Shown: one piece after another, positions 5,926 through 31,725 of the stretch
Layout: every line of letters begins with the position of its first letter
How positions within the stretch are numbered: position 1 is the stretch's first letter
Source of the DNA: Candidatus Hadarchaeales archaeon
Lineage (GTDB): Archaea; Hadarchaeota; Hadarchaeia; Hadarchaeales; Hadarchaeaceae
Assembly (NCBI GenBank): GCA_038823825.1
Contig: JAWBCC010000001.1
Location: 150,001 to 182,000 of the forward strand
Length of the DNA stretch: 32,000 nt
Reading direction: 5' to 3'
Notes under the pieces: generated by a model
What the model was told of the DNA's origin: nothing
The model's input: the letters and a program-made list of their open reading frames with translations, nothing else
The model's database searches: none
Program-made: the position numbers and the translations under genes

Positions 5926-5953
5926 GGTTTAGCGGTTAGTTTTGTGGAGGATC

Positions 5954-7117
5954 ATGAGAATAGGGGTATTGAGCTGGGAATCCCTTTACACGCTGCAGGT
6001 TGGAGGACTGGGAGTAGTCGCGACAAGGCTCTGCGAAGAGCTGGCAAAAGCCGGCCACGAGGTTTACATGTTCACGCGTGGAGCTCCCGGACAACCGAGC
6101 TACATGTACATAAACGGCGTGAACTATTACATCTGCGAATTTGATCCCGGTATGAACTGTGTGCAGTTTGCATATAACATGTCCATGTCGATGGTGAAAA
6201 CTCTCCGGGAGGTCGAGAAATATGAGGGCAAGTTTGACATAATTCACGGACATGACTGGATGGTTGTCGATGCGCTAGATAAACTCAAGAAAGAGGGATA
6301 TCCCGCCGTGCTTACTTTCCATTCCACAGAATACGGAAGAAATGGTTCAAAGTTTGGTGATTGGTGGGAATTCCGTGAAATCTCGAAGAAAGAGTGGTGG
6401 GGTGGACAGATCTCGGATGTGGTGACTACCGTCTCGAACGCGATGAAAGGCGAGTTGAACTGGTTATATAAAATTCCTATGAACAAAATCGAAGTAATAC
6501 CTAATGCCGTCGATCCGGCAAAGTATCAGCTAAACGTAGATCCGGCTGAAGTCAAAAAGAGATACGGAATAGATCCCTCCTCTCCCGTGATTCACTTTGT
6601 GGGCAGAATGGAATATCAGAAAGGACCGGATCTTCTCGTCGAGGCAATACCGAAAGTCTTAGAGGCCCATCCCCAAGCTAGATTCATATTTTCCGGGAGC
6701 GGTGGCATGAAGGGCTACCTCGAGCAGAGGGCCAGAGAACTGGGAATTTCGCATGCCACCAGATTTCTCGGTTTTGTTCCTTATCGCGAGTTTCTAGAAA
6801 TATTGAACGCCTGCGATATCGTTTGCTTGCCGAGCAGAAACGAGCCATTTGGGATAGCTCTCCTCGAAGCTTGGGCGGCCGGTAAGCCTGTTGTTGCAAC
6901 GGATGTTGGGGGTTTGGGAGAGAATATAGAAAACTTTGTAGATGGTGTAAAAGTATTTCCATGGCCTGAGTCTATTGCTTGGGGGATAAACTATCTGCTC
7001 GAGTCTGCAGACGGAAGGGAATTTGTGGCTCGTGGTGGAAGAGAAAAAGTTAAAAAGTTTTCATGGGCTAACTCTCTCGCTAAATTGCTCAAGGTCTATG
7101 AAAGAGTGCTCGGTTGA
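5954..7117 (+). CDS. glgA: Glycogen/alpha-glucan synthase (GT-B, GT4/GT5-like)
   Basis: [41 protein letters not shown] is an N-terminal (K/Q)xGGL-type motif. The C-terminal EX7E region is [32 protein letters not shown] 5954 is preferred over the track's TTG at 5942. Confidence 0.8.
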
Positions 7118-7121
7118 GAAA

Positions 7122-9035: not shown

Positions 9036-9042
9036 TGTTTTC

Positions 9043-12770: not shown

Positions 12771-14137
12771 TCGTTTGATCCTTCAAGTGCTTTAAGAACC
12801 CGAAAGACATCAAGTTCGCCGAGGGGTTTTCCTTGAACCTGTAGGCCCACTGGTATTCCGTCTACTTCTCCTACTTTCACAACACCTCCGCATATTCCGG
12901 CTAAATTTGCCGGAACCGTCAGATAGTCGTAGCTATACATCTCCATTGGCGCAAGTTTGGTTCCGAGTCTATGTGGAAGTTTTGGAACAGTCGGGCCAAC
13001 GATCACGTCAACATTACTGAGAACGCGCATCAGCTCTTCTTTTATTATCGTTCTGACTTGAAGAGCCCGCTGGTAGTATTTCCCCCGGTATTCCTTGCGA
13101 CTTATGTATGAACCGCGTCTTATCCTTCGTAAAACTTCCTCGCCGCAGACTTCTTCTATTCTTTTTCCGTACTTTCTTCCGTCAAACTTCCTAGTAGCCG
13201 AAAAAAATTCGACGGAGACGATGAGATAATATGCCGGTAAAGCTTTCTCGAGATTTGGAAGGTCTACCTCTACGATTTCCGCTCCGAGATCTCTTAACCT
13301 TTCAACTGCTCCATCGATGACTTCCATTATCCGCTCATCCGTGAGAAGGCGGAATTTTTCACTCACGCCGATTTTCATGCCTTTTATGTCGTCAGTCAAC
13401 TTTCCCAAATATTGAACTTTTTTGACATCGAGCATCATACATTCTTTCTCATTTTTTCCTGCCATGACTTCCAGAAGAAGCGCGGCCCCGTCGACGTCAG
13501 TAGCGAGCGGTCCTATTTGATCGAGACTCATGCCCAGATCTATCAAGCCATGTCTGGGAACCAGTCCATACGTTGGCTTTATCCCAACGATTCCACAGTG
13601 GCTTGCGGGATTTCTTATTGATCCGCCAGTGTCTGTCCCGAGGGCCAGATCGCAGAATTCCGCCGCAACCGCCGCTGCACTCCCGCTGCTCGATCCTCCG
13701 GGTATCCTGCCGGGTGCTGAGGGGTTATCTGTCGGACCGAATGCGCTGCTTTCTCCGCTCGATCCGCAGGCGAACTCATCCATGTTGGTCATCCCTATGA
13801 TGATCCCATCCTCTCTCTTGATTCTTTTGATGACCTCCGCATCGTAGGGACAGACGTAATCCTCAAGCGTTTTCGATGCGCATGTTGCTCTGAGACCCAA
13901 AACATTTATGTTTGATTTGACGGCTATCGCCAGCCCGGCCAGTTTACCGATCTTTTCACCTCTTTTTATTTTTTCGTCGATTTTCCTAGCCTCTTCAATG
14001 GCATTTGGGTTGATTTCTATGAACGCGTTTATTTTTCCGTTTAGCTTTTCAATCCTCTCGAGGAATTCTAGAACATTTTCCTCGGCAGAGATCTCCCCAT
14101 TCCTAATTTTTTCCAACTTCTCTAGCGTTCTACCCAA
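12767..14137 (-). CDS. gatA: Asp/Glu-tRNA amidotransferase subunit A (amidase-signature enzyme)
   Basis: GGSSSGSAAAVAA and GTDTGGSIRNPAS amidase-signature motifs. TTG start preceded by GGTGGAGGT. 16-nt overlap with the upstream small gene. Confidence 0.88.
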   Translation of the reverse strand: MGRTLEKLEKIRNGEISAEENVLEFLERIEKLNGKINAFIEINPNAIEEARKIDEKIKRGEKIGKLAGLAIAVKSNINVLGLRATCASKTLEDYVCPYDAEVIKRIKREDGIIIGMTNMDEFACGSSGESSAFGPTDNPSAPGRIPGGSSSGSAAAVAAEFCDLALGTDTGGSIRNPASHCGIVGIKPTYGLVPRHGLIDLGMSLDQIGPLATDVDGAALLLEVMAGKNEKECMMLDVKKVQYLGKLTDDIKGMKIGVSEKFRLLTDERIMEVIDGAVERLRDLGAEIVEVDLPNLEKALPAYYLIVSVEFFSATRKFDGRKYGKRIEEVCGEEVLRRIRRGSYISRKEYRGKYYQRALQVRTIIKEELMRVLSNVDVIVGPTVPKLPHRLGTKLAPMEMYSYDYLTVPANLAGICGGVVKVGEVDGIPVGLQVQGKPLGELDVFRVLKALEGSND

Positions 14138-19003: not shown

Positions 19004-20542
19004 TTGTCAGAGGCTGAAAAATACGCGAAGTACATGGTCCGCGGAAGCATCACAATCTTCCTATCCTTTGTTCTATCCGGTCTAGCCGCTCTGCTGATCA
19101 GGATAGTCCTGGCCAGAAATCTAACCCCAGAAGAGTATGGAATGGTCTATGCTGCATTTTATTTCGTGAGCTTTTTTGGTTTCTTCAGGGAGCTGGGTCT
19201 GACGGCATCTCTTACGAAATATATCCCCGAGTTTCTGACAAAAAAGGATTATTCATCGATACGTGCATCCATAAAATTCGTTCTGCTTCTTCAAGTGGCC
19301 ATAGTTGGTGCGGTTTCAACAGTTTTATTCTTTCTCTCACCATACATTGCCTCAGGCTTTATCGGACAACCGGGAGCCACCCAAATTCTCCGATATTTCA
19401 CGATATGGCTTTTTCTCTCCATCTTTTATTCAACTTTGCTCAGCATTTTTCAAGGCTTCCGCGATATAGCTGCGCACGGTTTACTGACGGCTGGTTTTGA
19501 AATATCAATTTTGGTTTTTCTGGTTCCCCTCCTATTTCTTTTCAATTTGGGGGCAAACGGCGCCGCTTTAGCCTATCTTTTCGGTACTCTAGTTCTCTCC
19601 GTTATATTCCTTTTTTACCTTAGACTTAAGCACGGCGAAATATTCTCAGTTCCCTCGGCTCAGCTCAAAATCGTTGCACGTCCTCTTCTTCTCTTTTCGA
19701 TCCCGCTCGCGCTAGCGAGCATTTTCTCTATGCTCATGAGTTATATTGACACCTGGGCAGTCACCGCCTTCTGTGGCGTAGAAGAGGTTGGATACTATCA
19801 GGTTGCACAGCCGACAGCACGTCTGCTATACTATGTGGCCGGATCGATCGTTATCCCGCTTTTTCCCTTGATTTCGGAGCTCTGGGCAAAAAACGATAGG
19901 TCATTTTTGAGCGGCGTAGTTTCGTCCATATTGAGTTTTTCATTTCTATTAATGATGCCTTTTGTTTTGGTTTTCATAGCTTTTCCAGAGGTCGTCATTC
20001 GCATCCTTTTCGGAGAAGGATATGTCGCTGGTGCACCCGTTCTTCAAATCTTCGCAGTAACTGCCTTGATATCGCTTTTATACAAAATCTTCAGCACGAC
20101 AGCCGCGGGAATAGGAAAACCGAAGGCAATCTTGACCGTAGCGATCAGCATGGGTGTGGCGGCGATCGCTTTTAACATGACTTTGGTCCCTGTCTGGGGC
20201 ATGAAAGGCGCAGCCTTTTCTCAGCTTATCGCTCACATGGCTGGTTTTGTCGTATACGCTGCATATTTGCGCAGATTTATAAAATTCTCTCTTCCAGTCT
20301 CCCCCATGATAAAAACAATAACTGGAAGCGTTTTTACTCTTCTGATTGTCTGGAGTCTAAAATCGATTTTGATTCTTCCAGTCTTCATTGAGACAGCGAT
20401 CGTTGCGTTCGCAGGTCTGCTATTTTACCTCATCTGGATTATTGCGACAAAGGCCTTGACAAGAGATGACATCGCTCTTCTGGTGAGAGCATTCCCAATT
20501 CCGCGGAGACTTGTTACATGGGCTGCAAGATATTTCAAATAA
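19004..20542 (+). CDS. Polysaccharide/oligosaccharide flippase (MOP/Wzx family)
   Basis: 512 aa, with roughly 12-14 hydrophobic helices throughout and a basic N-terminus. TTG start preceded by AAGGAGGTGA (18990-18999). Confidence 0.8.
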   Translation: MSEAEKYAKYMVRGSITIFLSFVLSGLAALLIRIVLARNLTPEEYGMVYAAFYFVSFFGFFRELGLTASLTKYIPEFLTKKDYSSIRASIKFVLLLQVAIVGAVSTVLFFLSPYIASGFIGQPGATQILRYFTIWLFLSIFYSTLLSIFQGFRDIAAHGLLTAGFEISILVFLVPLLFLFNLGANGAALAYLFGTLVLSVIFLFYLRLKHGEIFSVPSAQLKIVARPLLLFSIPLALASIFSMLMSYIDTWAVTAFCGVEEVGYYQVAQPTARLLYYVAGSIVIPLFPLISELWAKNDRSFLSGVVSSILSFSFLLMMPFVLVFIAFPEVVIRILFGEGYVAGAPVLQIFAVTALISLLYKIFSTTAAGIGKPKAILTVAISMGVAAIAFNMTLVPVWGMKGAAFSQLIAHMAGFVVYAAYLRRFIKFSLPVSPMIKTITGSVFTLLIVWSLKSILILPVFIETAIVAFAGLLFYLIWIIATKALTRDDIALLVRAFPIPRRLVTWAARYFK

Positions 20543-20545
20543 TCT

Positions 20546-21268
20546 TCAGAGAAAACCTCTTTTCATGAGTTCTTCCGCGATGATGAAGTCAAGCTCTGTG
20601 TTTATGTCAAAGGATTCCATTTCATCCATTACCAAAGCTAGGATCTCGTCCCCGGTCACGGATTTTTTCTCCCAAATGGTTTTCGGTCTTATCACGTCTA
20701 TGCAGGCGTTTTGTATGTAAACCTTGGGTAAAATCTGGTATGGTAAGCTGTGTCCATTTTTTGGTTTTTTATCAAGTGGTACGAACGATTTAAGTCTATT
20801 CCCCTCAATTACCCACATCTTGTAAGGATGTTCCTTACATAGCCTGACTGATCGAAGCGAATCCGCGTCTGGATTCTCAAGCATCATCTCTATCGCTTTA
20901 TCGATTGTTGAAGGTTTAAGAAAAGGCGAGGTGGGAAATAGCTTGACCACGAGGTCCGGGATGTACCCCTCATTGTCCCGCAACCAGTTAAGGGCATGCT
21001 CTATGGCGTAAAACTCGGGGGAATCCTCTTTTGCGAATTCTTTTGGACGGTAAAATGGAACCTCTGCTCCACACTCTCTGGCAACCTTGGCAATTTCCTC
21101 GTCATCGGTTGAAACGATTATTCTGTTTATATATTTGGATTTTCTCGCAGCCTGTATTACGTAGTAAATAAGGGGCTGTCCCGCGAGCGGTCTGATGTTC
21201 TTTCTCGGAACCCTTACGGAGCCACCTCTGGCAAGAATCAGTCCCAAAATCTTCATTTCCCGAGCCAT
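20546..21268 (-). CDS. Acylneuraminate (nonulosonate) cytidylyltransferase, NeuA/LegF-like
   Basis: ILARGGSVRVPRKNIRPLAGQPLIYYVI, IIVSTDDEEIAKVA, PFYRPKEFAKEDSP, YQILPKVYIQNACIDV. 16-nt overlap with the upstream transketolase gene. Confidence 0.85.
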   Translation of the reverse strand: MAREMKILGLILARGGSVRVPRKNIRPLAGQPLIYYVIQAARKSKYINRIIVSTDDEEIAKVARECGAEVPFYRPKEFAKEDSPEFYAIEHALNWLRDNEGYIPDLVVKLFPTSPFLKPSTIDKAIEMMLENPDADSLRSVRLCKEHPYKMWVIEGNRLKSFVPLDKKPKNGHSLPYQILPKVYIQNACIDVIRPKTIWEKKSVTGDEILALVMDEMESFDINTELDFIIAEELMKRGFL

Positions 21269-23151
21269 TTCTTCACCTTTTGTTTTATGCTCTCCGCATC
21301 AAGTCCAAAATAAGCCAAAATTTCTCCATTTTCTCCGGATTTCCCGTACCCTTCTATTCCTATTGTGTAGATTCTTCTGCCAAGTATTCTGTTTAGCTCT
21401 TCCGATATCCCACCTTTTGTAGAATGATTTTCTAAACAGATCACAGTTTCAAAGTCTTCCGTCTCTCTCAGGAGCCATTCTTCGTCAATTCTGTTCAGCC
21501 AAGGTAGGTCTATTATTTTGACTTTTATCTCATCTTTTTCCAACATTTGGCGGGCAATCAGAGCCTCGGAAAGCATGGTCGGACCATAACCTATCATAAC
21601 GGCATCTTTCCCATCCGCCAACTTTATTCCCTTGCCAAGTTCGAGTTTTTGTTCTTTCCATGGTATTTGCAACCTTGGAATGTTGTGCTCAAGCCTAAGG
21701 TAACTTGGCCCATCGTAATCGAAGACCAAAAACTCAAAGATTCTTCTCAACTCCTCTTTGCATGAAGGCGCGGAGAGTAGAAGATTTGGAATGTTTCGCA
21801 GGAGGGCTATATCTCTGATTCCTTGGTGAGATTTTCCCGGTTTTGCGGGGAGGATTCCGGCGAGATGACCGACATAGATTATCTTTGAACCCTCAGAGCA
21901 GTTATTGAAAATTTGTTCATTTGCTCTGGAGGTTAGAAATGCGGCATAGGTGTTTACAATTGGAAGCTTGCCGGCGAGAGCGAGTCCACCGGCTATCGAA
22001 ACCATGTCCTGTTCCGCGATTCCGACTTCCACAAACCTCTCGGGAAAGGTTATCTGGAATTCGCGCAGGCCGCAGGACTCCGCGAGATCTGCATCGAGCA
22101 CGATTAACTCTTTTTTCTTTCCTCCTACATCGACCAGAATTTGTGAGAAAGCTTCGACTAGAGACTCTCCGGGTTTTGGAGGTTTTTCTGCTAAATCTGG
22201 GCGGAAGACGGGGAAAGCTATGGGAATTTTATGTCTAGCCAACTTTTTCTTTATTCTCGTTGCAATTTCCCCCCAAGCTTTCCGATATTCTTCTCCGAAG
22301 GGGAGTTTATCGTGCCATTTGTAGAATCCCTTGCCGGACTTGAGAGCCACAGGATGTTCCATGAAAGAAACACCCTTTCCTTTTATCGTGTTGAGAATGA
22401 TGGCTTTCGGTTTACCCCTTATTTTCCTTATTTTTTTCAGAACTCTCAAGATTTTGCCAATATCATGCCCGTTTGTGACCTCAACATGCCATCCGAATGA
22501 TTTCAGTTTTTCTCTGATTGGGGAGATATCGACGACTCTTTCAACAGGCATGTCGGTTTGTACATAGTTTCTATCAATGAGCAGGTAAAGGTTATCGAGT
22601 TTCCAGTGACTCGCTGAGAGAACGGCCTCCCAATTTTGTCCCTCTTGGAGTTCGCCGTCTCCAACCAGAACATAAACGGACTTCTTAACCCCATCCAGCT
22701 TTGCGCTTAAAGCAAATCCCTTCGCTTTTGATATTCCCATTCCAAGCGAACCGGTGTTTGTTTCCACTCCGGGAGCAGATATCTCGGCATGTCCCTCCAG
22801 CCCATTTAACCTTCTAAAGGTTGCCAAACGTTCTGTTGGGAAAAAGCCACAGGATGCCAATGTTGAATAAAGCGCAGCCGCGGCATGTCCCTTGGAGAGA
22901 ATAAAAACATCTCGTTCGGCGTTTTTTGGATTGGTGGGGTCGATTTTCATTTCGGAGTGATATAAAACTGTCAAAATTTCTACGGCGCTGAAGGATGCTC
23001 CTATATGCCCGGATTTTGCGCAGATGATTGTGTTCAAAGCGTTTAATCTGATCATGTCTGCGATAACCGAAAGCTTCTCCTCAAGCTTCATCGTTCTGCA
23101 TTTTTTGACCTCGTCAAAGTCTGATTTCTCGAAAAAGATTTTCATCCTCAA
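21253..23151 (-). CDS. Transketolase-family ThDP enzyme, with the 'split-type' N and C sections fused in one 632-aa polypeptide
   Basis: N section: AKSGHIGASFS, ILSKGHAAAALY, LEGHAE, TGSLGMGIS, GDGELQEGQNWEA (ThDP/Mg motif), DNLYLLIDRN. C section: FPERFVEVGIAEQDMVSIAGGLA, SHQGIRDIALLRNIPN. ATGA overlap with the upstream ALDH gene. Confidence 0.85.
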   Translation of the reverse strand: MRMKIFFEKSDFDEVKKCRTMKLEEKLSVIADMIRLNALNTIICAKSGHIGASFSAVEILTVLYHSEMKIDPTNPKNAERDVFILSKGHAAAALYSTLASCGFFPTERLATFRRLNGLEGHAEISAPGVETNTGSLGMGISKAKGFALSAKLDGVKKSVYVLVGDGELQEGQNWEAVLSASHWKLDNLYLLIDRNYVQTDMPVERVVDISPIREKLKSFGWHVEVTNGHDIGKILRVLKKIRKIRGKPKAIILNTIKGKGVSFMEHPVALKSGKGFYKWHDKLPFGEEYRKAWGEIATRIKKKLARHKIPIAFPVFRPDLAEKPPKPGESLVEAFSQILVDVGGKKKELIVLDADLAESCGLREFQITFPERFVEVGIAEQDMVSIAGGLALAGKLPIVNTYAAFLTSRANEQIFNNCSEGSKIIYVGHLAGILPAKPGKSHQGIRDIALLRNIPNLLLSAPSCKEELRRIFEFLVFDYDGPSYLRLEHNIPRLQIPWKEQKLELGKGIKLADGKDAVMIGYGPTMLSEALIARQMLEKDEIKVKIIDLPWLNRIDEEWLLRETEDFETVICLENHSTKGGISEELNRILGRRIYTIGIEGYGKSGENGEILAYFGLDAESIKQKVKKWLGK

Positions 23152-24632
23152 TCCCTTTTGAACTGGACGTTCTGAACTCCTCCACTGTAGTCTATGTAAA
23201 TCGTCTTAAGCTCGGAGAAGGTTTCGATTGCGGCCCATCCCACCTCCCTGTGGCCACCCGAGTCTTTTACACCGCCGAAAGGTAGATGGACTTCGGAGCC
23301 AAAAGTCGGGGCGTTAACGTAGCAAACTCCAGCCTCCATTTTATCAAGGGCTTCCATAGCTCTGTTGACGTTTCTAGTGAAGATTGATGCAGAGAGACCG
23401 TAGTTTGTTGAGTTGTGGACTTTTATGGCTTCCTCGAAGGAGTCAACTTTCATCACAGCGAGAACCGGGCCGAAGATTTCCTCTCTGGCGATCCTCATCT
23501 CGGGCTTGACCTCGGTGAAAATGGTTGGCTCAAAGTATAATCCTCTTGAATAATCCCCCTCTGTCAACCTTCTTCCCCCGAGGATCAGTTTGGCTCCTTC
23601 TCTTTTTCCTATCTCCACGTATGTGATGATCTTGTTCAGTTGTCTCTCGCTTATCACTGGGCCTATCTCCGTAGTTTCATCTTCTGGATGTCCGACTTTC
23701 ATCTTTTTTGTTCGATCTACAAGTCTTTCGATAAATTCCTCGTAAATTTCTGCGTGGACGATTGCTCTGCTCGTTGCCGTACAACGCTGTCCAGAGACTG
23801 TGAAAGCACCGCGTGCAACCGCATCCACGGCTAGCTCCAAGTCACAATCCTCCATAACTATCGCAGCATTCTTTCCGCCGAGTTCGAGCGAGACCTTGGC
23901 GAGTCTCTCCCCGCAGATGGAAGCGATTTTTCTTCCAACTTCCGTTGATCCGGTGAAAGAGATGAGTCTGACTCTCTTGTTTCTAACGAGAGCCTCTCCA
24001 GCTTCTTCTCCAATTCCCTGTACCATATTGAAAACTCCTGGAGGAAGCTCAGATTCCGCAAAAACTTCCGCTATCTTCGTTGCCGCGAAAGGTGCCTCTT
24101 CCGATGGCTTTACGACAACAGTATTCCCACAGATTAGGGCGGGAAAAACTTTCCAACATATCAGATTAATCGGAAAATTCCAAGGGACGATGATGCCGCA
24201 GACTCCTATTGGAAATCTTCTGGTCATTGCCAGCCTTTTCGGGAGTTCGGAAAAAGTTGTTCTTCCATACAGGCGTCTTCCTTCGCCTGCCATAAAATCG
24301 CACATGTCTATGGCAGCTTTTATCTCGCCCAGGGCATCCCTCATCGTTTTGCCAACATCTTTTACGAGAGCTTTAGCCAGCTCCTCCTTCCTCTTTCTAA
24401 GAAGTTCGCTTATCTGTTGAAGCATTCTTCCCCTAATGGGGGGAGGTGTCTCTGACCATTCCCTGAAAGCCTTCTCGGCCGCCTCCACGGCTTTTTCAAC
24501 GTCTCGTTCATCAGACTTAGGAAAGAGACCGATCACTTCGTCCGTGTTTGCGGGATTTCTTCTCTCAAAGGTTCTGCCGGAAGTTGTCTCGACCCATTCT
24601 CCACCTATGAAGTTGCGGAAAACTTCGGGCAT
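23148..24632 (-). CDS. NAD(P)+-dependent aldehyde dehydrogenase (lactaldehyde/glycolaldehyde/glyceraldehyde-DH-like)
   Basis: FIGGEWV N-terminus, VPWNFP, FTGSTEVG, catalytic LELGGKNA and SGQRCTA. The start is placed at ATG 24632 (MPEVFRNFIGGEW), 1 nt after the SDR stop. The track's alternative is 24656. Confidence 0.85.
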   Translation of the reverse strand: MPEVFRNFIGGEWVETTSGRTFERRNPANTDEVIGLFPKSDERDVEKAVEAAEKAFREWSETPPPIRGRMLQQISELLRKRKEELAKALVKDVGKTMRDALGEIKAAIDMCDFMAGEGRRLYGRTTFSELPKRLAMTRRFPIGVCGIIVPWNFPINLICWKVFPALICGNTVVVKPSEEAPFAATKIAEVFAESELPPGVFNMVQGIGEEAGEALVRNKRVRLISFTGSTEVGRKIASICGERLAKVSLELGGKNAAIVMEDCDLELAVDAVARGAFTVSGQRCTATSRAIVHAEIYEEFIERLVDRTKKMKVGHPEDETTEIGPVISERQLNKIITYVEIGKREGAKLILGGRRLTEGDYSRGLYFEPTIFTEVKPEMRIAREEIFGPVLAVMKVDSFEEAIKVHNSTNYGLSASIFTRNVNRAMEALDKMEAGVCYVNAPTFGSEVHLPFGGVKDSGGHREVGWAAIETFSELKTIYIDYSGGVQNVQFKRD

Positions 24633-24633
24633 G

Positions 24634-25455
24634 TCACCACGCCGTGTAACCTCCATCTATTACGATGTTCGCTCCAGTCATGTACGAGGAGGCATCCGAA
24701 GCCAGAAAGAGTATTGCACCATTATATTCGTCTTTTCTTGCCATTCTTCCAAGCGGAACCTTTGCTGAATAATTTTTCACGAATTCGGGATCCTGATTGT
24801 TGAAAACACCACCAAAAATTAGACAGTTGACCCTGACATTCTTTTTGGCCCAATAAGTTGCAAGATACTTCGTCAGGTTGGAGACGGCTCCTTTGCTCAC
24901 GCAGTATGAAACCGGCTTTACAAAAGTTTGCCCGCTCTTCAGCTCGTATATGCGTTGATCGGGCGAAACTTCGCCGTAAATGGATGAGATGTTTATGATG
25001 CTCCCGCCCCCGCCCCCGGCCATCTTGCTTCCTATGATTTGTGTGCAGAGAATAGTTCCGATGACGTTCACGTCAAGAATCTTGCGAAGCAGATCCTCTG
25101 GGTAATTCTCAAATGTTAGAGTTTTTCCACCATATGTAGGTGGCACGTCTATTGCTGCGGCATTTACCAAGATTTTTGGAAAACCCCATTTTTTGACGAC
25201 GTCTTCGAGGGCACGCTCTATCGAGTCTCTGTCCGTCACATCAACCTTGTAGACGGCAATTCTCTCGCTTTTAAAAAGTTCTCGATATTCCTCAGGGACC
25301 TCGGTTTGAAGGTCAAAGACTGCGACCTTCGCCCCTGCGCCGTGGAGAGTTTTTACGAATTCTCTTCCGAGGAGTCCGGTGCCGCCCGTGACTATGGCAA
25401 CCCTGCCCTCGAGACCAAAAAGCTTGCTTAACATCTCTAAGTCTACTTCCGTCAT
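24634..25455 (-). CDS. Short-chain dehydrogenase/reductase, PtmA ('flagellin modification protein A')-like
   Basis: VAIVTGGTGLLG cofactor motif; YCVSK catalytic Y-x3-K. The ISSIYGEVSPDQRIYE...LTKYLATYWAKKNVRVNCL..GGVFNNQ...FLASDASSYMTGANIVIDGG pattern matches, from memory, the SDR subfamily found in nonulosonate loci. Confidence 0.75.
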   Translation of the reverse strand: MTEVDLEMLSKLFGLEGRVAIVTGGTGLLGREFVKTLHGAGAKVAVFDLQTEVPEEYRELFKSERIAVYKVDVTDRDSIERALEDVVKKWGFPKILVNAAAIDVPPTYGGKTLTFENYPEDLLRKILDVNVIGTILCTQIIGSKMAGGGGGSIINISSIYGEVSPDQRIYELKSGQTFVKPVSYCVSKGAVSNLTKYLATYWAKKNVRVNCLIFGGVFNNQDPEFVKNYSAKVPLGRMARKDEYNGAILFLASDASSYMTGANIVIDGGYTAW

Positions 25456-25476
25456 GCTTCAAAATTGATTTTTCGT

Positions 25477-25531
25477 GTAGATAAATAGAGTTTTCTGTTT
25501 GGGGAAAATTTTTCAAAAATCGTTTTTATTA
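25477..25531. promoter_or_regulatory. Divergent promoter region between the SDR operon and the NANS-like gene
   Basis: 'gataaatag' (TATA-like on the minus strand, ~28 nt from ATG 25455) and 'tttttatta' (25523-25531, ~30 nt from ATG 25557). Neither first gene has a convincing SD, so they may be leaderless. Confidence 0.35.
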
Positions 25532-25556
25532 GAAGAAGTCATCATAATTTGGAAAG

Positions 25557-26615
25557 ATGAAAGAGATAAGAGAGGTCAAGATAGGCAGCAGGTGGGTGGG
25601 CGACGACCATCCATGTTACATCGTCGCTGAAATCGGGAACAACCACAACGGTGAGCTCGAGATTGCTAAAAGACTGATCGAGGCTGCTTATGAGTGTGGG
25701 GCTGATGCCGTCAAATTCCAAAAGAGGGATATCGATTCTCTAATGACAAATGAACTCAAAAACATGCCTTATCTGAAATACGATTCTTTTGGGGCTACCT
25801 ATGGCGAACACAGACAAAAATTGGAGCTTCCTGAAGAAGATTGGTATAGGCTTTTCAACTTTGCCAAGAAGCTCGGAATTGATTTTTATGCAACGCCTTT
25901 TGATTTCAAAAGCGCCGATTTTCTTGAGAAACTGGGTGTCCCTTGCTTTAAGATAGCCTCCTTTGATGTCACAAATTTGCCATTGATCGATTACGTATGC
26001 AAGAAGGGAAAACCGGTTATCCTTTCTACCGGCATGTGCACATGGGAGGAGCTCGATGAGGCGGTCGAAGTCATACGGAGAAATGGAAACGATTTCATCC
26101 TCCTCCACTGTGTTTCGGCCTATCCGCACGACAACGAGATGTCAAATCTCCGGATGATTCAGAAGCTGAAAGAAAGATACAAAGTACCGGTCGGATATTC
26201 AGGGCACGAGAAATCAGGATTTGTCATTTCGCTTGGAGCCAGAATGATGGGTGCATGTATGATCGAAAGACACTTCACGCTCGATAGGACGATGAAAGGA
26301 CCTGACCATGCCGCATCTTTAGAGCCGAAAGGTCTAGCCGAACTGGTTAAAAACATCCGTAAGCTGGAGCAGGCCTTCGGAGACGGTGAGAAAAAGATTT
26401 TGGACATAGAGATGCCTCTGAGGCTTAAAATGACGAAAAGCATAGTAACGACGCGCTACATAAGGGCTGGAGAGGTCATAAGAAGGGAAGATCTCACCGT
26501 TAAATGTCCGGGAACGGGGCTCAAGCCGAAATATATTGACATGCTTGTTGGCAAAGTGGCTAAGAAGGATTTGCCCGAGGATACTATCGTTCCACTTGAG
26601 GCTCTCGAGTGGTAG
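25557..26615 (+). CDS. Nonulosonate-9-phosphate synthase-like NeuB homologue (animal NANS / KDN-9-P synthase type) with a C-terminal SAF domain
   Basis: RWVGDDHPCYIVAEIGNNHNGELEIAKRLIEAAYECGADAVKFQK, GATYGEHRQKLEL, GYSGHE, KGPDHAASLEPKGLAELV. These align closely with my recollection of human NANS (RWVGGQHPCFIIAEIGQNHQGDL..KFQK, GKTYGEHKRHLEF, GYSGHE, KGSDHSASLEPGELAELV). They do not match bacterial NeuB/PseI (K.QT.., SDHT). Confidence 0.8.
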   Translation: MKEIREVKIGSRWVGDDHPCYIVAEIGNNHNGELEIAKRLIEAAYECGADAVKFQKRDIDSLMTNELKNMPYLKYDSFGATYGEHRQKLELPEEDWYRLFNFAKKLGIDFYATPFDFKSADFLEKLGVPCFKIASFDVTNLPLIDYVCKKGKPVILSTGMCTWEELDEAVEVIRRNGNDFILLHCVSAYPHDNEMSNLRMIQKLKERYKVPVGYSGHEKSGFVISLGARMMGACMIERHFTLDRTMKGPDHAASLEPKGLAELVKNIRKLEQAFGDGEKKILDIEMPLRLKMTKSIVTTRYIRAGEVIRREDLTVKCPGTGLKPKYIDMLVGKVAKKDLPEDTIVPLEALEW

Positions 26616-27105
26616 ATTTCTTTGCCTCGTAAATCATATCACAGATTTCTCTTACGGCTCCTCTCCCACCTGGATTTTTTGTCACGTAGTCGGCCTCTCT
26701 CACTACTTCAGGCATGCTACCTTTTGGCGCAATCGACAATCCGGCAAACCTCATGCATTCGAGATCCGGGGTGTCGTTTCCGACGAAGCAAGCTTCCTGC
26801 GGAAGAACTTTCTCTCTTTCCAAGATTTTCTTGAAGGCATTTAGTTTGTTTTTCTCACCCGTCACGCATTCCAATCCTAGTTTTGCGCATCTCTTTTCGA
26901 CAATCGGATTTATCTCCGAGCTTATTACAACGGTTTTGACGCCGATCTCTTTCAGTTTTTGCAATCCAATTCCGTCTGATCTCCAACAGCAGACCATCTC
27001 TCTTCCGTCTTGATCGACGTAAACCTTGTTGTCTGTGAAAACTCCGTCGAAATCGAAGGCTACCAGCTTTATCCTCTTCAGTTTTTCTCTGCTAGGTTTC
27101 TTCAT
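26584..27105 (-). CDS. HAD-IIIA KdsC-family sugar-acid phosphate phosphatase
   Basis: KLVAFDFDGVFTDNKVYVDQDGREMV (DxD nucleophile motif), SDGIGLQKL, VVISSE, NKL.AF, FVGNDTPDLECM, ADYVTKNPGGRGAVREICDMI, which is near-colinear with KdsC/YrbI. ATG 27105 is preferred over TTG 27108. The 3' end overlaps the NANS-like gene by 32 nt. Confidence 0.85.
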   Translation of the reverse strand: MKKPSREKLKRIKLVAFDFDGVFTDNKVYVDQDGREMVCCWRSDGIGLQKLKEIGVKTVVISSEINPIVEKRCAKLGLECVTGEKNKLNAFKKILEREKVLPQEACFVGNDTPDLECMRFAGLSIAPKGSMPEVVREADYVTKNPGGRGAVREICDMIYEAKKSTTREPQVER

Positions 27106-27171
27106 CAAAAGAACTTGATAACCTCATGCTTTTAAGAATCGTTAATAAAATCGAACCTCCTAATTTAATGG

Positions 27172-28596
27172 ATGCGGACAATCTTCATGACGATTCCGGA
27201 TTGGTTTTCGGCCAGAAATATCATCCAAACCGACGCCTTCAGGATATTAAAATCTCAGGAGGACCTGCGGATAGTGGTATTTTCCCCTTTTGCTGGCGGA
27301 AGATCTTGTCTGGAAGATTTGCCGGGCGTGAAAGGGGAGAATGTGATTTTTGAGGATCAGGCCAGATATCTACCAAATTTCGTGGAAAGGCTGTTCAGGA
27401 AGATGCAGGAACTGATCGTTTTCAACATAAATTACGTAGAAAACGTTTGGTTTAAGGAAAAATATCTGATGAGGGAAAATCTTCTGCTCTACTCGTCTTT
27501 TGAGGTTCTCAAAAGAATTCTTGGAAAGAGAAGGTTTCTTCTGAGGTATCTTGACTCTTTAGATTGGCTATTGGCAAGTCCGAAGCACTCGAGATATCTG
27601 GAACTCTTCAGGAAATACAAACCGGACCTTGTTTTTTCAACAAACATACTGAGGCATACAGATTGGAAGCTCGTGCAAACAGCCCGCAGAGCAGGGGTTC
27701 CAGTAATCTCAATGGTTGCGAATTGGGATCATCTCACAAAGGGGATTCTTCCGCCCTCAGATTTCGTCATCGCTTGGAGCGAGTTCAACAGGAAGGAGTT
27801 AATGTCTTACTATGGGTATCATCCGAATCAGATCGCGATTGTCGGAATCCCGCATCAGGATTATTTTGTAAGAGTAAACCCCGAGGAGGCTAAAAGGAAG
27901 ATAAGAACGGAGCTCGGACTCAAAGAGGAAAAACTTATCCTTTACACAACTGCTCGGAGCATATATTACGAGCCTGAAATAGTGGAGATTTTATGCGAGG
28001 CGGTTAGAAAGGGCGAAATCAATTTCCCGGTTCACGTTCACGTCCGCGTTCATCCGGAGGACAACTACGCCAGATATAGGCACATAGAGGAGAAGTATGG
28101 CGATTTTGTGACCTTTGAGGGCGGAGGTAAGACCTTGGTTCCAAGAGTCTATTCCGTGAAGGCTCAGACCGAAATGGATACGAGGGGTAAAATGTGGCTA
28201 CCTGATGAAGGAGATATGATTCACTATGCTGAGCTTCTCTACTCGTGCGATGTTGCTGTCAATATTGCTTCGTCCGTTACCTTGGACTCTGTTGCCGTGG
28301 ACAAGCCAACAGTCAATATAGCCTTTGACGGATATCGGGAAAGGCCATTCATAGAGTCGACGAGGAGATACTTTTACACCACGCACTACAAAGTAGTTGC
28401 GAAGTCTGGTGGGGTTAAAATCGCGAGGAATCCGAAAGAGCTTGTCGATTTCATAAACATGTATCTGGAGAATCCGGAGCTAGACAGGGAAGGGAGAAGG
28501 AAAATTGTCGAGGAAAGCGGGGGACCGATTGATGGGAAATGTGGAGAGAGAATCGCAAAGGCTGTTTTAGAATTCCTAAAGAAGACGAGTGGATAA
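27172..28596 (+). CDS. Hypothetical GT-B-fold protein, TagF/CDP-glycerol glycerophosphotransferase-like; candidate glycan transferase
   Basis: 474 aa with no TM segment. Weak family-like patterns: KPDLVFSTN, GVPVISMVANWDH, KLILYTTARS, VRVHPED, LLYSCDVAVNIASSVTLDSVAVDKPTVNIAFDGY. A TATA-like 'ttaataaaa' lies ~26 nt upstream. Confidence 0.4.
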   Translation: MRTIFMTIPDWFSARNIIQTDAFRILKSQEDLRIVVFSPFAGGRSCLEDLPGVKGENVIFEDQARYLPNFVERLFRKMQELIVFNINYVENVWFKEKYLMRENLLLYSSFEVLKRILGKRRFLLRYLDSLDWLLASPKHSRYLELFRKYKPDLVFSTNILRHTDWKLVQTARRAGVPVISMVANWDHLTKGILPPSDFVIAWSEFNRKELMSYYGYHPNQIAIVGIPHQDYFVRVNPEEAKRKIRTELGLKEEKLILYTTARSIYYEPEIVEILCEAVRKGEINFPVHVHVRVHPEDNYARYRHIEEKYGDFVTFEGGGKTLVPRVYSVKAQTEMDTRGKMWLPDEGDMIHYAELLYSCDVAVNIASSVTLDSVAVDKPTVNIAFDGYRERPFIESTRRYFYTTHYKVVAKSGGVKIARNPKELVDFINMYLENPELDREGRRKIVEESGGPIDGKCGERIAKAVLEFLKKTSG

Positions 28597-28599
28597 GGA

Positions 28600-29592
28600 A
28601 TGCCGTTCAATGTGGTATTTTTCACAGAAGGTGGAGAAAACGCAGGTTTTGGTCACATAACTAGATGCAGGGCTCTTTCCGATGCTTTTGAAGAGGTTGG
28701 TAGGGAGACCACTTTCGTTGTAAAAGGCGATGAAAAAATCGTCAAGTTTCTAAATAGGGACGTAGTTTTGGAAAATTGGATCGATGATTTCGAGACGTTC
28801 AAAAGCTTTCTTTCTTCCGCCGATCTTGTTGTGATAGACTCGTACTTGGCGTCGCTAGACCATTACCGGTGGGCAAGTGAGTTAAAAAGGTGTCTATTTG
28901 TTGACGATTTCAGAAGATTGGACTATCCGCCAAAAAGCATCGTCTTGAATGGAAGCATCTACGCTGAGAAGCTGAGATATCCAAAAAGGAAGGGTGTTCG
29001 ATATTTATTGGGTTCAAAGTTCGCACCGCTTAGAAGGGCTTTCTGGGAGGTTGAAGAAAAAGTTGTAAATCCGGAGATCGAAAAAATTTTTGTCAGTTTT
29101 GGTCTAAATGACACGAGGAGATTGATACCGTCAGTGGTGAAAACTCTTTCCGAGAAATTTCCACAGTGTGAGCTATGCGTTGTCGTAGACCCACAGTCGC
29201 CGAGTGGAAAGAAGTTGCTTTCGATGGATTTGAAAAACGTGAAGATTTTCGGAAACTTATCCGCGGAAGAGATGAAGGAACTCATGCTTGAATGCGATGT
29301 TGCCGTGAGTGCTGGAGGTCAGACTACATATGAACTCGCCAGAGTTGGAGTACCTTCTGTTCTCATAGCCGTGGCGGAAAATCAGCTCTTGAACTGTAAG
29401 GGTTGGCAGGGGGCTGGATTCGCTTATTACGTTGGTTTTGCCGGAAGTGAGAATACACTCCGAAAAATAATCGAGCACCTGAAAAAACTTGAAGACGAAA
29501 AAATTAGGTCAAAGATGAGTAAAATTGGGAGAAAATATGTCGACGGGCAGGGGGCTAGAAGAGTTGTTAAAGAATTTCAGAATAGTGGATGA
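28600..29592 (+). CDS. pseG: PseG/SpsG-family UDP-sugar hydrolase (UDP-2,4-diacetamido-2,4,6-trideoxy-beta-L-altropyranose hydrolase-like)
   Basis: VVFFTEGGENAGFGHITRCRALSDAF (the family's GxGHxxR motif), LVVIDSY, VSFGLNDTRRL, DVAVSAGGQTTYELARVGVPSVLI. Starts 3 nt after the upstream stop. Confidence 0.75.
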   Translation: MPFNVVFFTEGGENAGFGHITRCRALSDAFEEVGRETTFVVKGDEKIVKFLNRDVVLENWIDDFETFKSFLSSADLVVIDSYLASLDHYRWASELKRCLFVDDFRRLDYPPKSIVLNGSIYAEKLRYPKRKGVRYLLGSKFAPLRRAFWEVEEKVVNPEIEKIFVSFGLNDTRRLIPSVVKTLSEKFPQCELCVVVDPQSPSGKKLLSMDLKNVKIFGNLSAEEMKELMLECDVAVSAGGQTTYELARVGVPSVLIAVAENQLLNCKGWQGAGFAYYVGFAGSENTLRKIIEHLKKLEDEKIRSKMSKIGRKYVDGQGARRVVKEFQNSG

Positions 29593-29740
29593 AATCGTTT
29601 TGCTAAAGACTTGAGAAACAGTAGTTGGACTCCGGAAGTGGATGGATAAACTCCAATTTGGCTAAAAAGTCGTAAATCTCAAAAATTTATTGCAAGATTA
29701 ATATAGTCAATTGGTAGACTCAAGTATGGGAGGAATCCAG

Positions 29741-30469
29741 ATGGGTGAGAGCAAAAACATCGTTGTCGCCACAATCAAAAGCTGGAATATTAGGCTGGCA
29801 GAAAAACTTCAAAAAGAATTGGAAGGGAAATACAATGTATATATCATGACAAAGAAAGAGGATTTGTCGCCTGAGAATCTAGAGAACATTCGACCGATTT
29901 ACATCTTTTTTCCCCATTGGTCTTGGATTATTCCACCAGAGGTGTATACGAGATTTGAATGTATAGGTTTTCACATTACAGACTTACCGTATGGTCGAGG
30001 AGGAAGTCCACTACAAAATTTGATTTTGAAAAAGAAATACGAAACAAAAATAACAGCTTTTCGGATCGGCAGAGACATAGATGCTGGGGAAATTTATTTG
30101 AAAGTCCCATTTTACATAGGATTGGGTAGCGCAGAGGAAATTTTTATTAAAGCATCTGAGATCATTTTCACAAAAATGATTCCTCAAATTTTAGAATCCA
30201 GACCAATTCCTGTACCACAAACGGGGGAAGTAGTAATTTTCAAAAGAAGAAGCCCAGAGGAAAGTAATTTAGCAGGAGCAGATATTAAAAATCTCGATGA
30301 TCTTTATGATTTCATAAGAATGTTGGACGCTGAGGGATACCCCAGAGCTTTCATTAAGATAAATAATGTGGTAATCTTGTTTTCAGAAGCACACAAGAAG
30401 GAAGGAAAAGTAGTTGGGAGGTTTGAGGCAGTTGAAGAACAAAATTCTGGCTATAGTAGCGCACCCTGA
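29741..30469 (+). CDS. Formyltransferase-family protein (Fmt N-terminal-domain-like), associated with the nonulosonate locus
   Basis: FFPHWSWIIPPEVY..ECIGFHITDLPYGRGGSPLQNLIL...AFRIGRDIDAGEIY resembles the H-x-S/T-x-LP-x-x-RG and DxG motifs of formyl transferases. ATG 29741 is preceded by GGGAGGA; the track's alternative is TTG 29711. Confidence 0.65.
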   Translation: MGESKNIVVATIKSWNIRLAEKLQKELEGKYNVYIMTKKEDLSPENLENIRPIYIFFPHWSWIIPPEVYTRFECIGFHITDLPYGRGGSPLQNLILKKKYETKITAFRIGRDIDAGEIYLKVPFYIGLGSAEEIFIKASEIIFTKMIPQILESRPIPVPQTGEVVIFKRRSPEESNLAGADIKNLDDLYDFIRMLDAEGYPRAFIKINNVVILFSEAHKKEGKVVGRFEAVEEQNSGYSSAP

Positions 30470-31109
30470 TGATGAAATTTTAGGATGTGGTGGAACTCTA
30501 GCCAAGTTTGCAAAACAGGGATGGGAAGTATATGTGCTGAGTCTTAGTCGCGGCGTAACTTCGCGATACGAAAGTGAAGAAAAAAGTAGCAAAAAAAAGA
30601 TTAGTGAGTTAGAAATTCAGGCTCGAGAGGCAAATAAGATAATTGGCACAAAGCGACTTTTCATGCTCGATTTTCCAGACAATATGTTTGATACAATACC
30701 CCTACTTAAAATTGTAAAATCAATTGAAAAAATTAAAAACATGATACGTCCTAGTTTTGTTTTTACTCACTTCAGAGAGGATCTCAATATTGATCATAGA
30801 ATAACATATGAGGCAACTATTACTGCAATGAGGCCTTTACCTAATGAAACCGTGAAAGAGATACTTTCCTTCGAAATAATGTCTTCAACGGAATGGCGGT
30901 ACCCCACTCGTTTTTCACCAAATGTATTTGTCGATATATCGGATACGATTGATCTAAAGCTTCATGCCATGGAGGCCTACAAAGAGGAGTTGAGAACACC
31001 TCCTCACCCCCGCTCTCTCGAAACTATAAAATTTAATGCGGCAGTTTGGGGAAGTAAAGTTGGTCTAAAATTTGCCGAAGCCTTTGAATTAATACGGAAA
31101 GTATGCTAA
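30432..31109 (+). CDS. PIG-L/LmbE-family N-deacetylase
   Basis: ILAIVAHPDDEILGCGGTLAKFAKQG (the PIG-L signature AHPDDE) and a later HxDH (NIDHR). There is no ATG upstream of the signature, so a TTG start is required. TTG 30432 lies 9 nt after GGGAGGT (30416-22); the alternative is TTG 30414. Overlaps the upstream gene by 38-56 nt. Confidence 0.8.
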   Translation: MKNKILAIVAHPDDEILGCGGTLAKFAKQGWEVYVLSLSRGVTSRYESEEKSSKKKISELEIQAREANKIIGTKRLFMLDFPDNMFDTIPLLKIVKSIEKIKNMIRPSFVFTHFREDLNIDHRITYEATITAMRPLPNETVKEILSFEIMSSTEWRYPTRFSPNVFVDISDTIDLKLHAMEAYKEELRTPPHPRSLETIKFNAAVWGSKVGLKFAEAFELIRKVC

Positions 31110-31125
31110 TTTATGGTCTGATAGA

Positions 31126-31725
31126 ATGAAGCAGAAACACGGAAACTTGGCAAATTTACGTCTGAAAAAATTCAAAATTGATGATATAGAGCTGATTAAT
31201 TTCGTGAATTTAAACAAAGACGAGAAGAACATCGTTTTGAAGATGAGAAATCATGATACAGTGAGGAAGTGGATGTATAATAATAGGATCATCTCGCCGC
31301 ACGAACATTACCGTTTTATTTGGTCTCTCAAAAAAGATTCAAAAAACTTCTATTTTTTGGTCAGGAGGCAAAACAAATTTATGGGGGTAGTGTATCTAAC
31401 CAGAGTGGATTTCATGAACAGAAACGGATATTTGGGTCTGTATGCGAATCCTTTTTTTTCTGAGAAAAAAATTGGAACAATTTTGGGAAATATTCTTCTA
31501 AAACTTGCTTTCGACATTGCGGGACTTCACACTCTGAAGCTGGAGGTCATAGAGGACAACGAGAGGGCGATACATCTATATAAAAAATTGGGTTTTGTCG
31601 AAGAAGGAAGGTTGAGAGAATTTGTCTTCAGAGATGGAAAGTGGAAAGACGTAATTATTATGGGAATGACCGAAGAGGAATATCGGAGAAAGCGTCATGA
31701 AAGTGGAGTTGAAAATAGGAGATAG
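31126..31725 (+). CDS. pseH: PseH-like GNAT N-acetyltransferase
   Basis: LNKDEKNIVLKMRNHDTVRKWM...ISPHEHYRFIWSLKKDSKNFYFLV....GVVYLTRVD..NRNGYLGLYANP...AIHLYKKLGF matches the layout of C. jejuni PseH as I recall it (WRNHP...FM, EEHLRFL..L..D..KKYFLV, FGLYAKP). Confidence 0.75.
   Translation: MKQKHGNLANLRLKKFKIDDIELINFVNLNKDEKNIVLKMRNHDTVRKWMYNNRIISPHEHYRFIWSLKKDSKNFYFLVRRQNKFMGVVYLTRVDFMNRNGYLGLYANPFFSEKKIGTILGNILLKLAFDIAGLHTLKLEVIEDNERAIHLYKKLGFVEEGRLREFVFRDGKWKDVIIMGMTEEEYRRKRHESGVENRR

Follow-up and report, generated by a model that had tools for sequence, protein, structure and literature searches.

Layout of the ulosonic-acid cassette

The DNA analysed here (the window) is a stretch of 32,000 nt from a Candidatus Hadarchaeales archaeon (GenBank assembly GCA_038823825.1, contig JAWBCC010000001.1, positions 150,001 to 182,000). 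It carries six genes that very probably form a dedicated cassette for a non-amino ulosonic acid with a remodelled tail, activated with cytidine monophosphate (CMP). [quoted passage not shown] Public annotations give all six genes generic names only. The cassette is laid out as follows, in window coordinates:

20546-21268, minus strand: CMP-ulosonate synthetase of the acylneuraminate cytidylyltransferase family, 240 aa (CTP_transf_3, PF02348, 2.5e-27)
21253-23145 or 21253-23151, minus strand: fused transketolase (TK), 630 or 632 aa (Transketolase_N, Transket_pyr and Transketolase_C)
23148-24632 or 23148-24656, minus strand: aldehyde dehydrogenase (ALDH), 494 or 502 aa (Pfam Aldedh, PF00171, 4.4e-182)
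24634-25455, minus strand: short-chain dehydrogenase/reductase (SDR), 273 aa (Pfam adh_short_C2, 5.8e-46)
25456-25556, no strand: AT-rich, divergent intergenic spacer of 101 bp between the SDR operon and NeuB
25557-26615, plus strand: NeuB-family, NANS-like ulosonate-phosphate synthase (Pfam NeuB, PF03102, 1.8e-89, and SAF, PF08666, 1.8e-10)
26584-27108, minus strand: KdsC/YrbI-type phosphatase of the haloacid dehalogenase (HAD) class (TIGR01670, above cutoff)

An earlier reading of this DNA (the original prediction) had identified the four leftmost genes as an SDR, an ALDH, a fused TK and a cytidylyltransferase, and the Pfam assignments agree. It had also joined them into one unit with the divergent NANS-like synthase, and the conserved synteny described below bears this out. 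The spacer between them may have a promoter function. The KdsC-type phosphatase beside NeuB is a further cassette member, absent from that prediction. The 3' ends of these two convergent genes overlap by 32 nt (26584-26615) on opposite strands.

The four leftmost genes do overlap or abut as had been claimed. Read from the sequence, the SDR/ALDH junction is either TGAcATG or a 23-nt overlap that uses an upstream ATG at 24656, and the ALDH/TK junction depends on the TK start, being a TTGA overlap for the TTG at 23151 and TGAggATG for the ATG at 23145, which the 630-aa public gene models use. The ATGA overlap that the prediction had placed at the ALDH/TK junction does not occur there in the sequence. 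It belongs to the TK/cytidylyltransferase junction, as the alternative (ATG at 21256) to a 16-nt overlap (ATG at 21268). These overlaps suggest that the four genes are translationally coupled.

As had been pointed out, a TK and an ALDH have no role in the canonical routes to N-acetylneuraminic acid (Neu5Ac), Leg, Pse or 2-keto-3-deoxy-D-glycero-D-galacto-nononic acid (KDN), and here they mark a branch of ulosonic-acid synthesis that is apparently undescribed, as is the cassette itself. A full-text literature search (transketolase with nonulosonic or ulosonic acid, NeuB, cytidylyltransferase, heptulosaric acid and PtmA) found no paper linking a TK to a NeuB or nonulosonic-acid cluster. One literature match, to Clostridium butyricum, was coincidental.

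Conservation of the gene set

A TK alignment was scanned over one genome per species, and the loci were then searched with the window proteins by tblastn. We used tblastn as the primary test of presence; in metagenome-assembled genomes (MAGs) that were high in GC or frameshifted, some genes were broken up or hidden by the open reading frame (ORF) caller, and absence calls based on ORFs were unreliable there (e.g. in L013 and L032-L038).

Among the contexts of TK homologues, a colinear run of NeuB, KdsC-like HAD, SDR, ALDH and TK, with a CTP_transf_3 gene nearby, was found in Micrarchaeia and Thermodesulfobacteriota. By tblastn, the six-gene set is present in Deltaproteobacteria, Elusimicrobia, Anaerolineae, Gammaproteobacteria, Melainabacteria, Vicinamibacterales, Chloroflexaceae, Polyangiaceae, Phycisphaerales, Verrucomicrobiota, several Actinomycetota and Dehalococcoidales; in a Methylobacter MAG (Gammaproteobacteria), the cassette-type TK is located inside the cassette. 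The same set recurs beside this TK family, both among archaea and across more than twelve bacterial phyla. Co-occurrence of SDR, ALDH, TK and neuA beside NeuB genes in other genomes, which the original prediction had proposed as a comparative check, is widely conserved.

When all ORFs of thirty-six loci found through the TK were clustered, the only broadly conserved families were those of the six cassette genes, and the set is present in most of these loci. The phosphatase gene is colinear with NeuB and SDR in most related loci, and most module loci carry orthologues of the cytidylyltransferase (39-80% identical). To offset the bias of anchoring on the TK, we also ran a search anchored on the SDR. 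All three of the distant contexts that were opened (a bacterium, Nitrospirae and Auribacterota) had the order NeuB-HAD-SDR-ALDH-TK, with SDR homologues 58-62% identical to that of the window.

The accessory genes vary, and include TylF-type methyltransferases, carbamoyltransferases, sulfotransferase-like and radical-SAM proteins, KpsC/S-type and TagF-type transferases and GDP-heptose genes. Genes of the KpsC/KpsS type (the Kdo-transferase family) flank the module in L003 and L005, and genes resembling GDP-mannose dehydratase and NTP-transferases recur near the cassette in several bacteria. In the closest Hadarchaeales relatives (in L001, at 10867-13471), an SDR-TK-cytidylyltransferase operon without ALDH runs into genes for a GmhA-like SIS isomerase, a GmhB-like HAD protein and a short transaldolase/FSA. 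Adjoining it are an NTP-transferase and an epimerase, and the arrangement resembles a pathway for nucleoside diphosphate (NDP)-heptose.

The linkage follows the type of TK. Where the TK bears the signature P[AGST]xPGxSHQ, NeuB accompanies it in 28 of 40 loci, and the remaining twelve are mostly short contigs or retain another module gene. Neither NeuB nor any other module gene was found in the loci of canonical GEDGxxHQ TKs (0/36). The signature could serve to annotate the cassette.

Given this pattern, it is hardly credible that three genes of central metabolism (TK, ALDH and SDR) just happen to lie beside a KDN- or Pse-type cluster. Such an explanation would fit the generic public annotations and the few TKs of the cassette family that stand alone in Ignavibacteria. 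It does not sit well with overlapping genes, with an operon kept across archaea and more than twelve bacterial phyla whether approached from the TK or from the SDR, or with a TK that has lost its canonical substrate ligands and misses every curated TK cutoff. The counter-case named in the original prediction, a housekeeping TK lacking conserved synteny, is likewise not what was found: synteny is broad and the TK is missing the residues with which housekeeping TKs bind sugar phosphates, as detailed below.

The enzymes and a predicted pathway

The three TK domains of the window protein lie in a single polypeptide. The original prediction had seen in this a fusion of normally split sections, which is true locally; the fused form is, however, the rule in this TK family, and one Nitrospirae module (L090:11469-13233) has a split TK (297 aa + 311 aa). 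We compared the window TK, numbered here as a 630-aa protein, with human TK and E. coli TktA. The motif GDGE...N, which binds thiamine diphosphate (ThDP) and Mg, starts at residue 162, and the activating glutamate is Glu378 of IAEQ. Catalytic histidine motifs are present as SGH47, SKGH87, EGH119, WH278 and SH440 (equivalents of E. coli His26, His66, His100, His261 and His473), as are equivalents of Asp155, Asn185 and Glu411 (E. coli numbering). MAFFT misplaced His461, Ser385 and His261 by a column or into a gap, and these were instead assigned by motif inspection; His461 and Ser385 probably have counterparts in the window TK (H427 and S357).

The ligands of the sugar phosphate and aldose, Arg358, Asp469 and Arg520 in E. 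coli (Arg318, Asp424 and Arg474 in human TK), are not kept. Arg358 has no counterpart, the window TK reading GESLVEAFSQ where canonical TKs read ATRKAYGQ. Asp469 is replaced by Pro436, a proline that is invariant across the cassette-type TK family, and Arg520 by His487, where other family members have Ile, Ser or Asn. Split TKs recovered in the same scan from Clostridia, Fusobacterium and Streptococcus retain ATRxxYG, T/SHAG, GEDG and the Arg520 equivalent. The split TK of the Nitrospirae module resembles these ordinary split TKs but has Thr-Ala for Glu-Asp469 and Ala for Arg520; it seems to have been recruited independently and to have lost the same residues by convergence.

Scores against curated models are low throughout. 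The window TK reaches 420 bits for NF004559 (cutoff 488), 295 for NF004556 (cutoff 575), 231 for TIGR00232 (cutoff 682) and 202 for the 1-deoxyxylulose-5-phosphate synthase (DXS) model TIGR00204 (cutoff 466), and none of the five further family members tested reaches any curated TK or DXS cutoff. From its residues and scores, we conclude that the window TK is a genuine ThDP-dependent ketol-transfer enzyme with a second substrate other than an ordinary sugar phosphate, and that it does not appear to belong to the pentose phosphate pathway. The unusual ketose-phosphate precursor suggested in the original prediction is disfavoured by the lost phosphate site. We also rejected the TK as a supplier of sedoheptulose-7-phosphate or erythrose-4-phosphate for the heptose genes of the Hadarchaeales relatives, because the phosphate ligands are lost and most module loci are without heptose genes.

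The enzymes that would begin the pathway point to a phosphorylated, non-amino entry. The NeuB homologue is below its equivalog cutoffs (TIGR03569, 354 against 400 bits; PseI TIGR03586, 284 against 340). Its identity to a provisional human NANS sequence, with which it also shares motifs, is 41% (271 bits), and it scores 183 bits to Neisseria meningitidis NeuB. NANS uses N-acetylmannosamine-6-phosphate or mannose-6-phosphate. Where the meningococcal enzyme has Arg314, which we take to contact the N-acetyl group, the window NeuB has Cys and nearly all other module NeuBs have Ser, Ile or Cys; VKxQKRDN and GATYGEH are motifs common to the module NeuBs. The phosphatase passes TIGR01670 (119.6 bits, cutoff 106.95), matches the KdsC model NF007019 (2.3e-37) and the KDN-9-phosphate phosphatase model NF058599 (1.6e-23), and has the HAD nucleophile motif DxDGV as FDFDGVFTD. 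The cytidylyltransferase scores 141 bits for PseF TIGR03584 (cutoff 206) and at most 54 bits for KdsB models (cutoffs of at least 155), and ARGGS (from residue 13) and PRKN (from residue 21) are present in its N-terminal loop. The conserved core of the thirty-six clustered loci contains no dehydratase, epimerase, N-acetyltransferase or PseC/LegC-type sugar aminotransferase, and no PseB- or PseC-type gene was found among window ORFs of at least 150 aa. A central aldose phosphate is therefore the simplest substrate.

This composition bears directly on the mechanism put forward in the original prediction, in which the ThDP-bound C2 unit would become a glycolyl, glyceroyl or lactyl group on an amino-nonulosonate before CMP activation. 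In that case, handling the acyl unit would fall to the SDR and ALDH, with oxidation of glycolaldehyde to glycolate as one example. We consider this mechanism very unlikely. To our knowledge, none of the non-canonical TKs (Rif15, the glycolyl-forming split pairs and the sulfo-TK pathway) is linked to NeuB or CMP-sugar genes. They do show that the TK fold can act on substrates other than pentose phosphates and move C2 units to unusual acceptors, as reported for Rif15 in the formation of rifamycin L (PMC6002545). The window itself has PseG-like, PseH, deacetylase and formyltransferase-like genes downstream, so amino-nonulosonate chemistry does occur in the organism. The core of the clustered loci, however, has no sugar aminotransferase to create an N-acylation site, no acyltransferase, no carrier protein, no lipoyl or E2 partner and no CoA ligase. 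Glycolyl-forming TK systems consist of a TK-like E1, an E2 or acyltransferase and a carrier protein, and the gene families conserved beside the cassette TK include no such partner. Moreover, dozens of genomes have the module without Pse or Leg genes nearby, the NANS-like synthase and KdsC phosphatase indicate a non-amino, phosphorylated route, and the replacement of ALDH by an aminotransferase, described next, would make no sense for an acyl donor; it fits an omega-aldehyde on the sugar better.

Among NCBIfam models, the SDR matches PRK09186 best (171 bits, cutoff 255), followed by gluconate 5-dehydrogenase and D-mannonate oxidoreductase; its PDB neighbours include the gluconate 5-dehydrogenase 1vl8, and its active-site motif is Y184xxxK188. 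The PtmA-like label it had first been given is weak. A published table names PtmA a 'flagella modification protein', assigns it to the initial, GDP-GlcNAc part of CMP-Leg synthesis and credits it with no enzyme activity, so that the label gives no mechanistic lead. The SDR belongs to a highly conserved, module-specific subfamily. It is of classical length (273 aa), yet its Gly-rich motif TGGTGLLG has the TGxxGxxG spacing typical of extended SDRs.

The ALDH has its catalytic residues intact, as had been noted (Glu250 in ELGGK and Cys284 in GQRC). Its top NCBIfam matches are alpha-ketoglutaric semialdehyde dehydrogenase (KGSADH; 557 bits, cutoff 770) and 2,5-dioxovalerate dehydrogenase (532 bits, below cutoff), and it reaches no curated equivalog cutoff. 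ALDH is present in most module loci and absent in L001, L002 and L058. In a Bacteroidota MAG (L022) and a Polyangiaceae MAG (L024), a class-III aminotransferase, the only kind of aminotransferase seen, takes its place, in the order TK-aminotransferase-SDR-HAD-NeuB. Dehalococcoidales and the closest Hadarchaeales relatives have neither enzyme nearby. The exchange of ALDH for a class-III aminotransferase implies a terminal aldehyde intermediate, and the two variants probably make an omega-amino version of the sugar. Their aminotransferases (L022:11916-13250 and L024:5013-6845) resemble glutamate-1-semialdehyde (GSA) aminomutase, and upstream of them are an Epimerase_2-like protein and a CTP_transf_3 gene of another type.

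A terminal aldehyde could also serve as an acceptor, with the TK adding a C2 ketol from hydroxypyruvate or a ketose and the SDR reducing the resulting ketone to give a C10-C11 ulosonic acid. TKs are reversible, and hydroxypyruvate as donor needs no phosphate site. Chain extension nevertheless seems improbable: the ALDH or aminotransferase would be a competitor for this aldehyde and be left without a role, and with the SDR acting as a reductase, no core enzyme would make the aldehyde. Magnetospirillum sugars differ by +14 Da, which is one carbon and not two, and the word 'transketolase' appears nowhere in the preprint that describes them.

In another scheme, the chain stays intact. The TK would provide NeuB with an aldose phosphate (such as erythrose-4-phosphate or ribose-5-phosphate), the SDR would, once the phosphate is removed, oxidise the terminal CH2OH to an aldehyde, and the ALDH or aminotransferase would produce a carboxylate or an amine. 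The product would be an ulosaric or omega-amino ulosonic acid, made as in the synthesis of 8-amino-8-deoxy-Kdo (Kdo8N) in Shewanella, where the oxidase/dehydrogenase KdnB and the aminotransferase KdnA act on Kdo. This would suit the order NeuB-HAD-SDR-ALDH, in which the TK comes last or lies apart, and would explain the ALDH/aminotransferase exchange equally well; in Hadarchaeales relatives, the TK also shares an operon with transaldolase and heptose-pathway genes. We think it unlikely all the same. A TK that supplies sugar phosphates would be expected to keep their ligands, which are lost in the cassette family and, for Asp469 and Arg520, in the split Nitrospirae enzyme. Bacteria with a housekeeping TK would need no second, strictly linked one (28/40 against 0/36), and classical SDRs act mostly on secondary alcohols.

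The reading we prefer, tentatively, is that the TK shortens the chain. From the gene identities, the synteny, the altered active site and the ALDH/aminotransferase exchange, we infer a substrate, an order of steps, a direction for the TK reaction and a product. NeuB would condense phosphoenolpyruvate with a central aldose-6-phosphate, most simply mannose-6-phosphate, to give KDN-9-phosphate, and the KdsC-type phosphatase would convert this to KDN, freeing the C9 hydroxyl. The SDR would then oxidise the penultimate C8 hydroxyl, creating a HOCH2-CO-CHOH- tail. By our own stereochemical bookkeeping, this tail would be D-threo at C7/C6 when seen from C9, as TK donors require. The TK would take off C9-C8 as a ThDP-bound glycolaldehyde unit, leaving a C7 aldehyde, which the ALDH would oxidise to a second carboxylate. 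The resulting 3-deoxy-hept-2-ulosaric acid would be activated with CMP by the cytidylyltransferase for transfer to a surface glycan. In the sister variants, the aldehyde would be transaminated by the class-III aminotransferase or, with no ALDH, left as it is or reduced.

Chain cleavage gives all six genes a role. It would account for the loss of the TK phosphate site, because the phosphatase acts earlier in the pathway, and for the ALDH/aminotransferase swap. The closest curated ALDH families act on omega-aldehydes of 2-keto acids, in support of the ALDH step, and the closest characterised SDR families oxidise the penultimate carbon of hexonic acids to a HOCH2-CO- tail, in support of the SDR step. 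The same three enzymes and the same logic are found in the route from 5-keto-D-gluconate to L-tartrate. Gluconate (or idonate) 5-dehydrogenase, TK and a semialdehyde dehydrogenase (SSADH) lead from gluconate through 5-keto-gluconate and a C4 semialdehyde to tartrate; this use of TK was proposed earlier (PMC7970118), and the TK and SSADH steps have been experimentally validated (PMC13527115). There, a housekeeping TK of primary or specialised metabolism is promiscuous on a free hexonic acid, whereas the cassette would have a dedicated TK with a rebuilt site, in a nucleotide-sugar context and with a substrate that we predict.

Several points weigh against this pathway. It is a prediction from genes, and substrates are hard to deduce from similarity among SDRs and among ALDHs. 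The query behind the NANS comparison above was a provisional sequence. With the phosphate site gone, the predicted pathway offers no acceptor for the C2 unit. Making a C9 sugar and then trimming it to C7 is uneconomical, and the product predicted from KDN would, by our bookkeeping, be the L-arabino isomer, which is not a sugar we know from nature. Some loci also lack parts of the set. Two Anaerolineae loci (L011 and L027) hold NeuB, ALDH, the CMP-synthetase and TK with no SDR or KdsC phosphatase within 10 kb, and the close Hadarchaeales relatives L001 and L002 have no ALDH or KdsC phosphatase nearby. TKs of this type also occur with no module gene within 10 kb, in three loci of Ignavibacteria and one of Gaiellaceae, so the TK family is not exclusive to the cassette.

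These stand-alone TKs with the cassette signature lie at about position 10000 in L015, L016 and L030 (Ignavibacteria) and at 4726-6633 in L039 (Gaiellaceae). Their neighbours are a histidine kinase, a transposase, a solute symporter and a VWA protein. We considered the Ignavibacteria genes as a clue to function, and their unrelated neighbours taught us nothing on that count.

The overall likeness of the cassette is to the KDN or animal-type sialic acid route (KDN in Bacteroides thetaiotaomicron; NANS, NANP and CMAS in vertebrates), with its NANS-like synthase, KdsC-family phosphatase and CTP_transf_3 protein and its lack of amino-sugar enzymes. The cassette differs in its three strictly linked extras (SDR, ALDH and TK) and in a synthase and cytidylyltransferase that fall below the cutoffs of the curated equivalogs. 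The UDP- or GDP-sugar 4,6-dehydratase, aminotransferase, N-acetyltransferase or 2-epimerase of the canonical Pse, Leg and Neu5Ac pathways is not in its core. In Kdo8N synthesis, as predicted for the cassette, a 3-deoxy-ulosonic acid has its tail remodelled by way of an omega-aldehyde prior to activation with CMP. That pathway comes closest to the L022/L024 variant, but it employs an iron-dependent alcohol dehydrogenase and another family of aminotransferase, with no TK and no chain shortening.

The predicted C7 product would be of the same chemical class as 3-deoxy-D-lyxo-hept-2-ulosaric acid (Dha), found in plant rhamnogalacturonan II and prasinophyte scales. According to reviews, the pathway and activated form of Dha are not yet established. 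We rejected Dha itself as the product, since it is the D-lyxo isomer, whereas starting from KDN predicts L-arabino, and since the facial selectivity of NeuB-type enzymes argues against a Kdo-like configuration.

It is possible, and a shade more doubtful than the chemistry proposed above, that this is the first known route to a nucleotide-activated 3-deoxy-2-ulosaric sugar by way of a KDN-type acid shortened by TK, with C7 omega-amino and aldehyde or alcohol sister products, widespread in uncultured archaea and more than twelve bacterial phyla. In all ulosonic-acid routes known to us, the carbon skeleton is assembled a single time and decoration follows. If the prediction is right, editing of the carbon skeleton would be added to ulosonic-acid chemistry and TK enzymes would gain a new class of substrate. 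Many uncultured archaea and bacteria would be expected to have a new family of CMP-sugars (C7 diacid and omega-amino) at their surfaces, and there would be a concrete set of enzymes for making ulosaric acids, of which Dha is the only well-known member.

Other genes of the window

Two genes flank the cassette:

19004-20542, plus strand: Wzx/MOP-type flippase (Polysacc_synt, 2e-26), convergent with the cytidylyltransferase
27172-28596, plus strand: TagF-like or BFO_1060-like glycosyltransferase (Glyphos_transf, 1.4e-10; partial BFO_1060_trans, 5e-12)

Homologues of the TagF-like gene adjoin the module in L001, L002, L008, L009, L011, L032, L036 and L091, and Polysacc_synt genes likewise flank it in L003, L005 and L089. 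With low confidence, we name the TagF-like protein as a candidate transferase for the activated sugar, peripheral to the cassette.

A second gene set, of Pse type, follows at 28600-31725 and comprises a PseG-like gene (134 bits, cutoff 153.6), a formyltransferase-like gene, a LmbE/BshB1-like deacetylase and a GNAT whose score of 164 bits clears the PseH equivalog cutoff of 93. No PseB, PseC, PseI or PseF was found in the window. The PseG-like and PseH genes (28.6-31.7 kb) are specific to the window and absent from the related loci examined, and the pairing of deacetylase and formyltransferase recalls one reported in the Leg cluster of Ca. Kuenenia. G+C content is 0.37-0.41 over 29-32 kb, compared with about 0.46 elsewhere in the window, and because of this drop, the Pse-type block may have been acquired horizontally.

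Further upstream, a glycogen/alpha-glucan block (5942-12770) was read from ORF translations, with only the name DUF3536 confirmed. It holds a GT4/GT5-like glycogen synthase, a GlgB-type branching enzyme, the DUF3536 protein (read as GH57-type) and a 4-alpha-glucanotransferase; the TTG start listed for the GlgB-type gene overlaps the preceding gene by about 95 nt. The segment 88-5857 holds a convergent pair of very large ORFs, of 768 aa and 1162 aa, with repeated Fn3-like modules and a recurring 'YYWRVRA' motif. Judging by its translation, the second appears to contain alkaline-phosphatase-like and alpha-amylase-like regions, and both are probably secreted or surface proteins.

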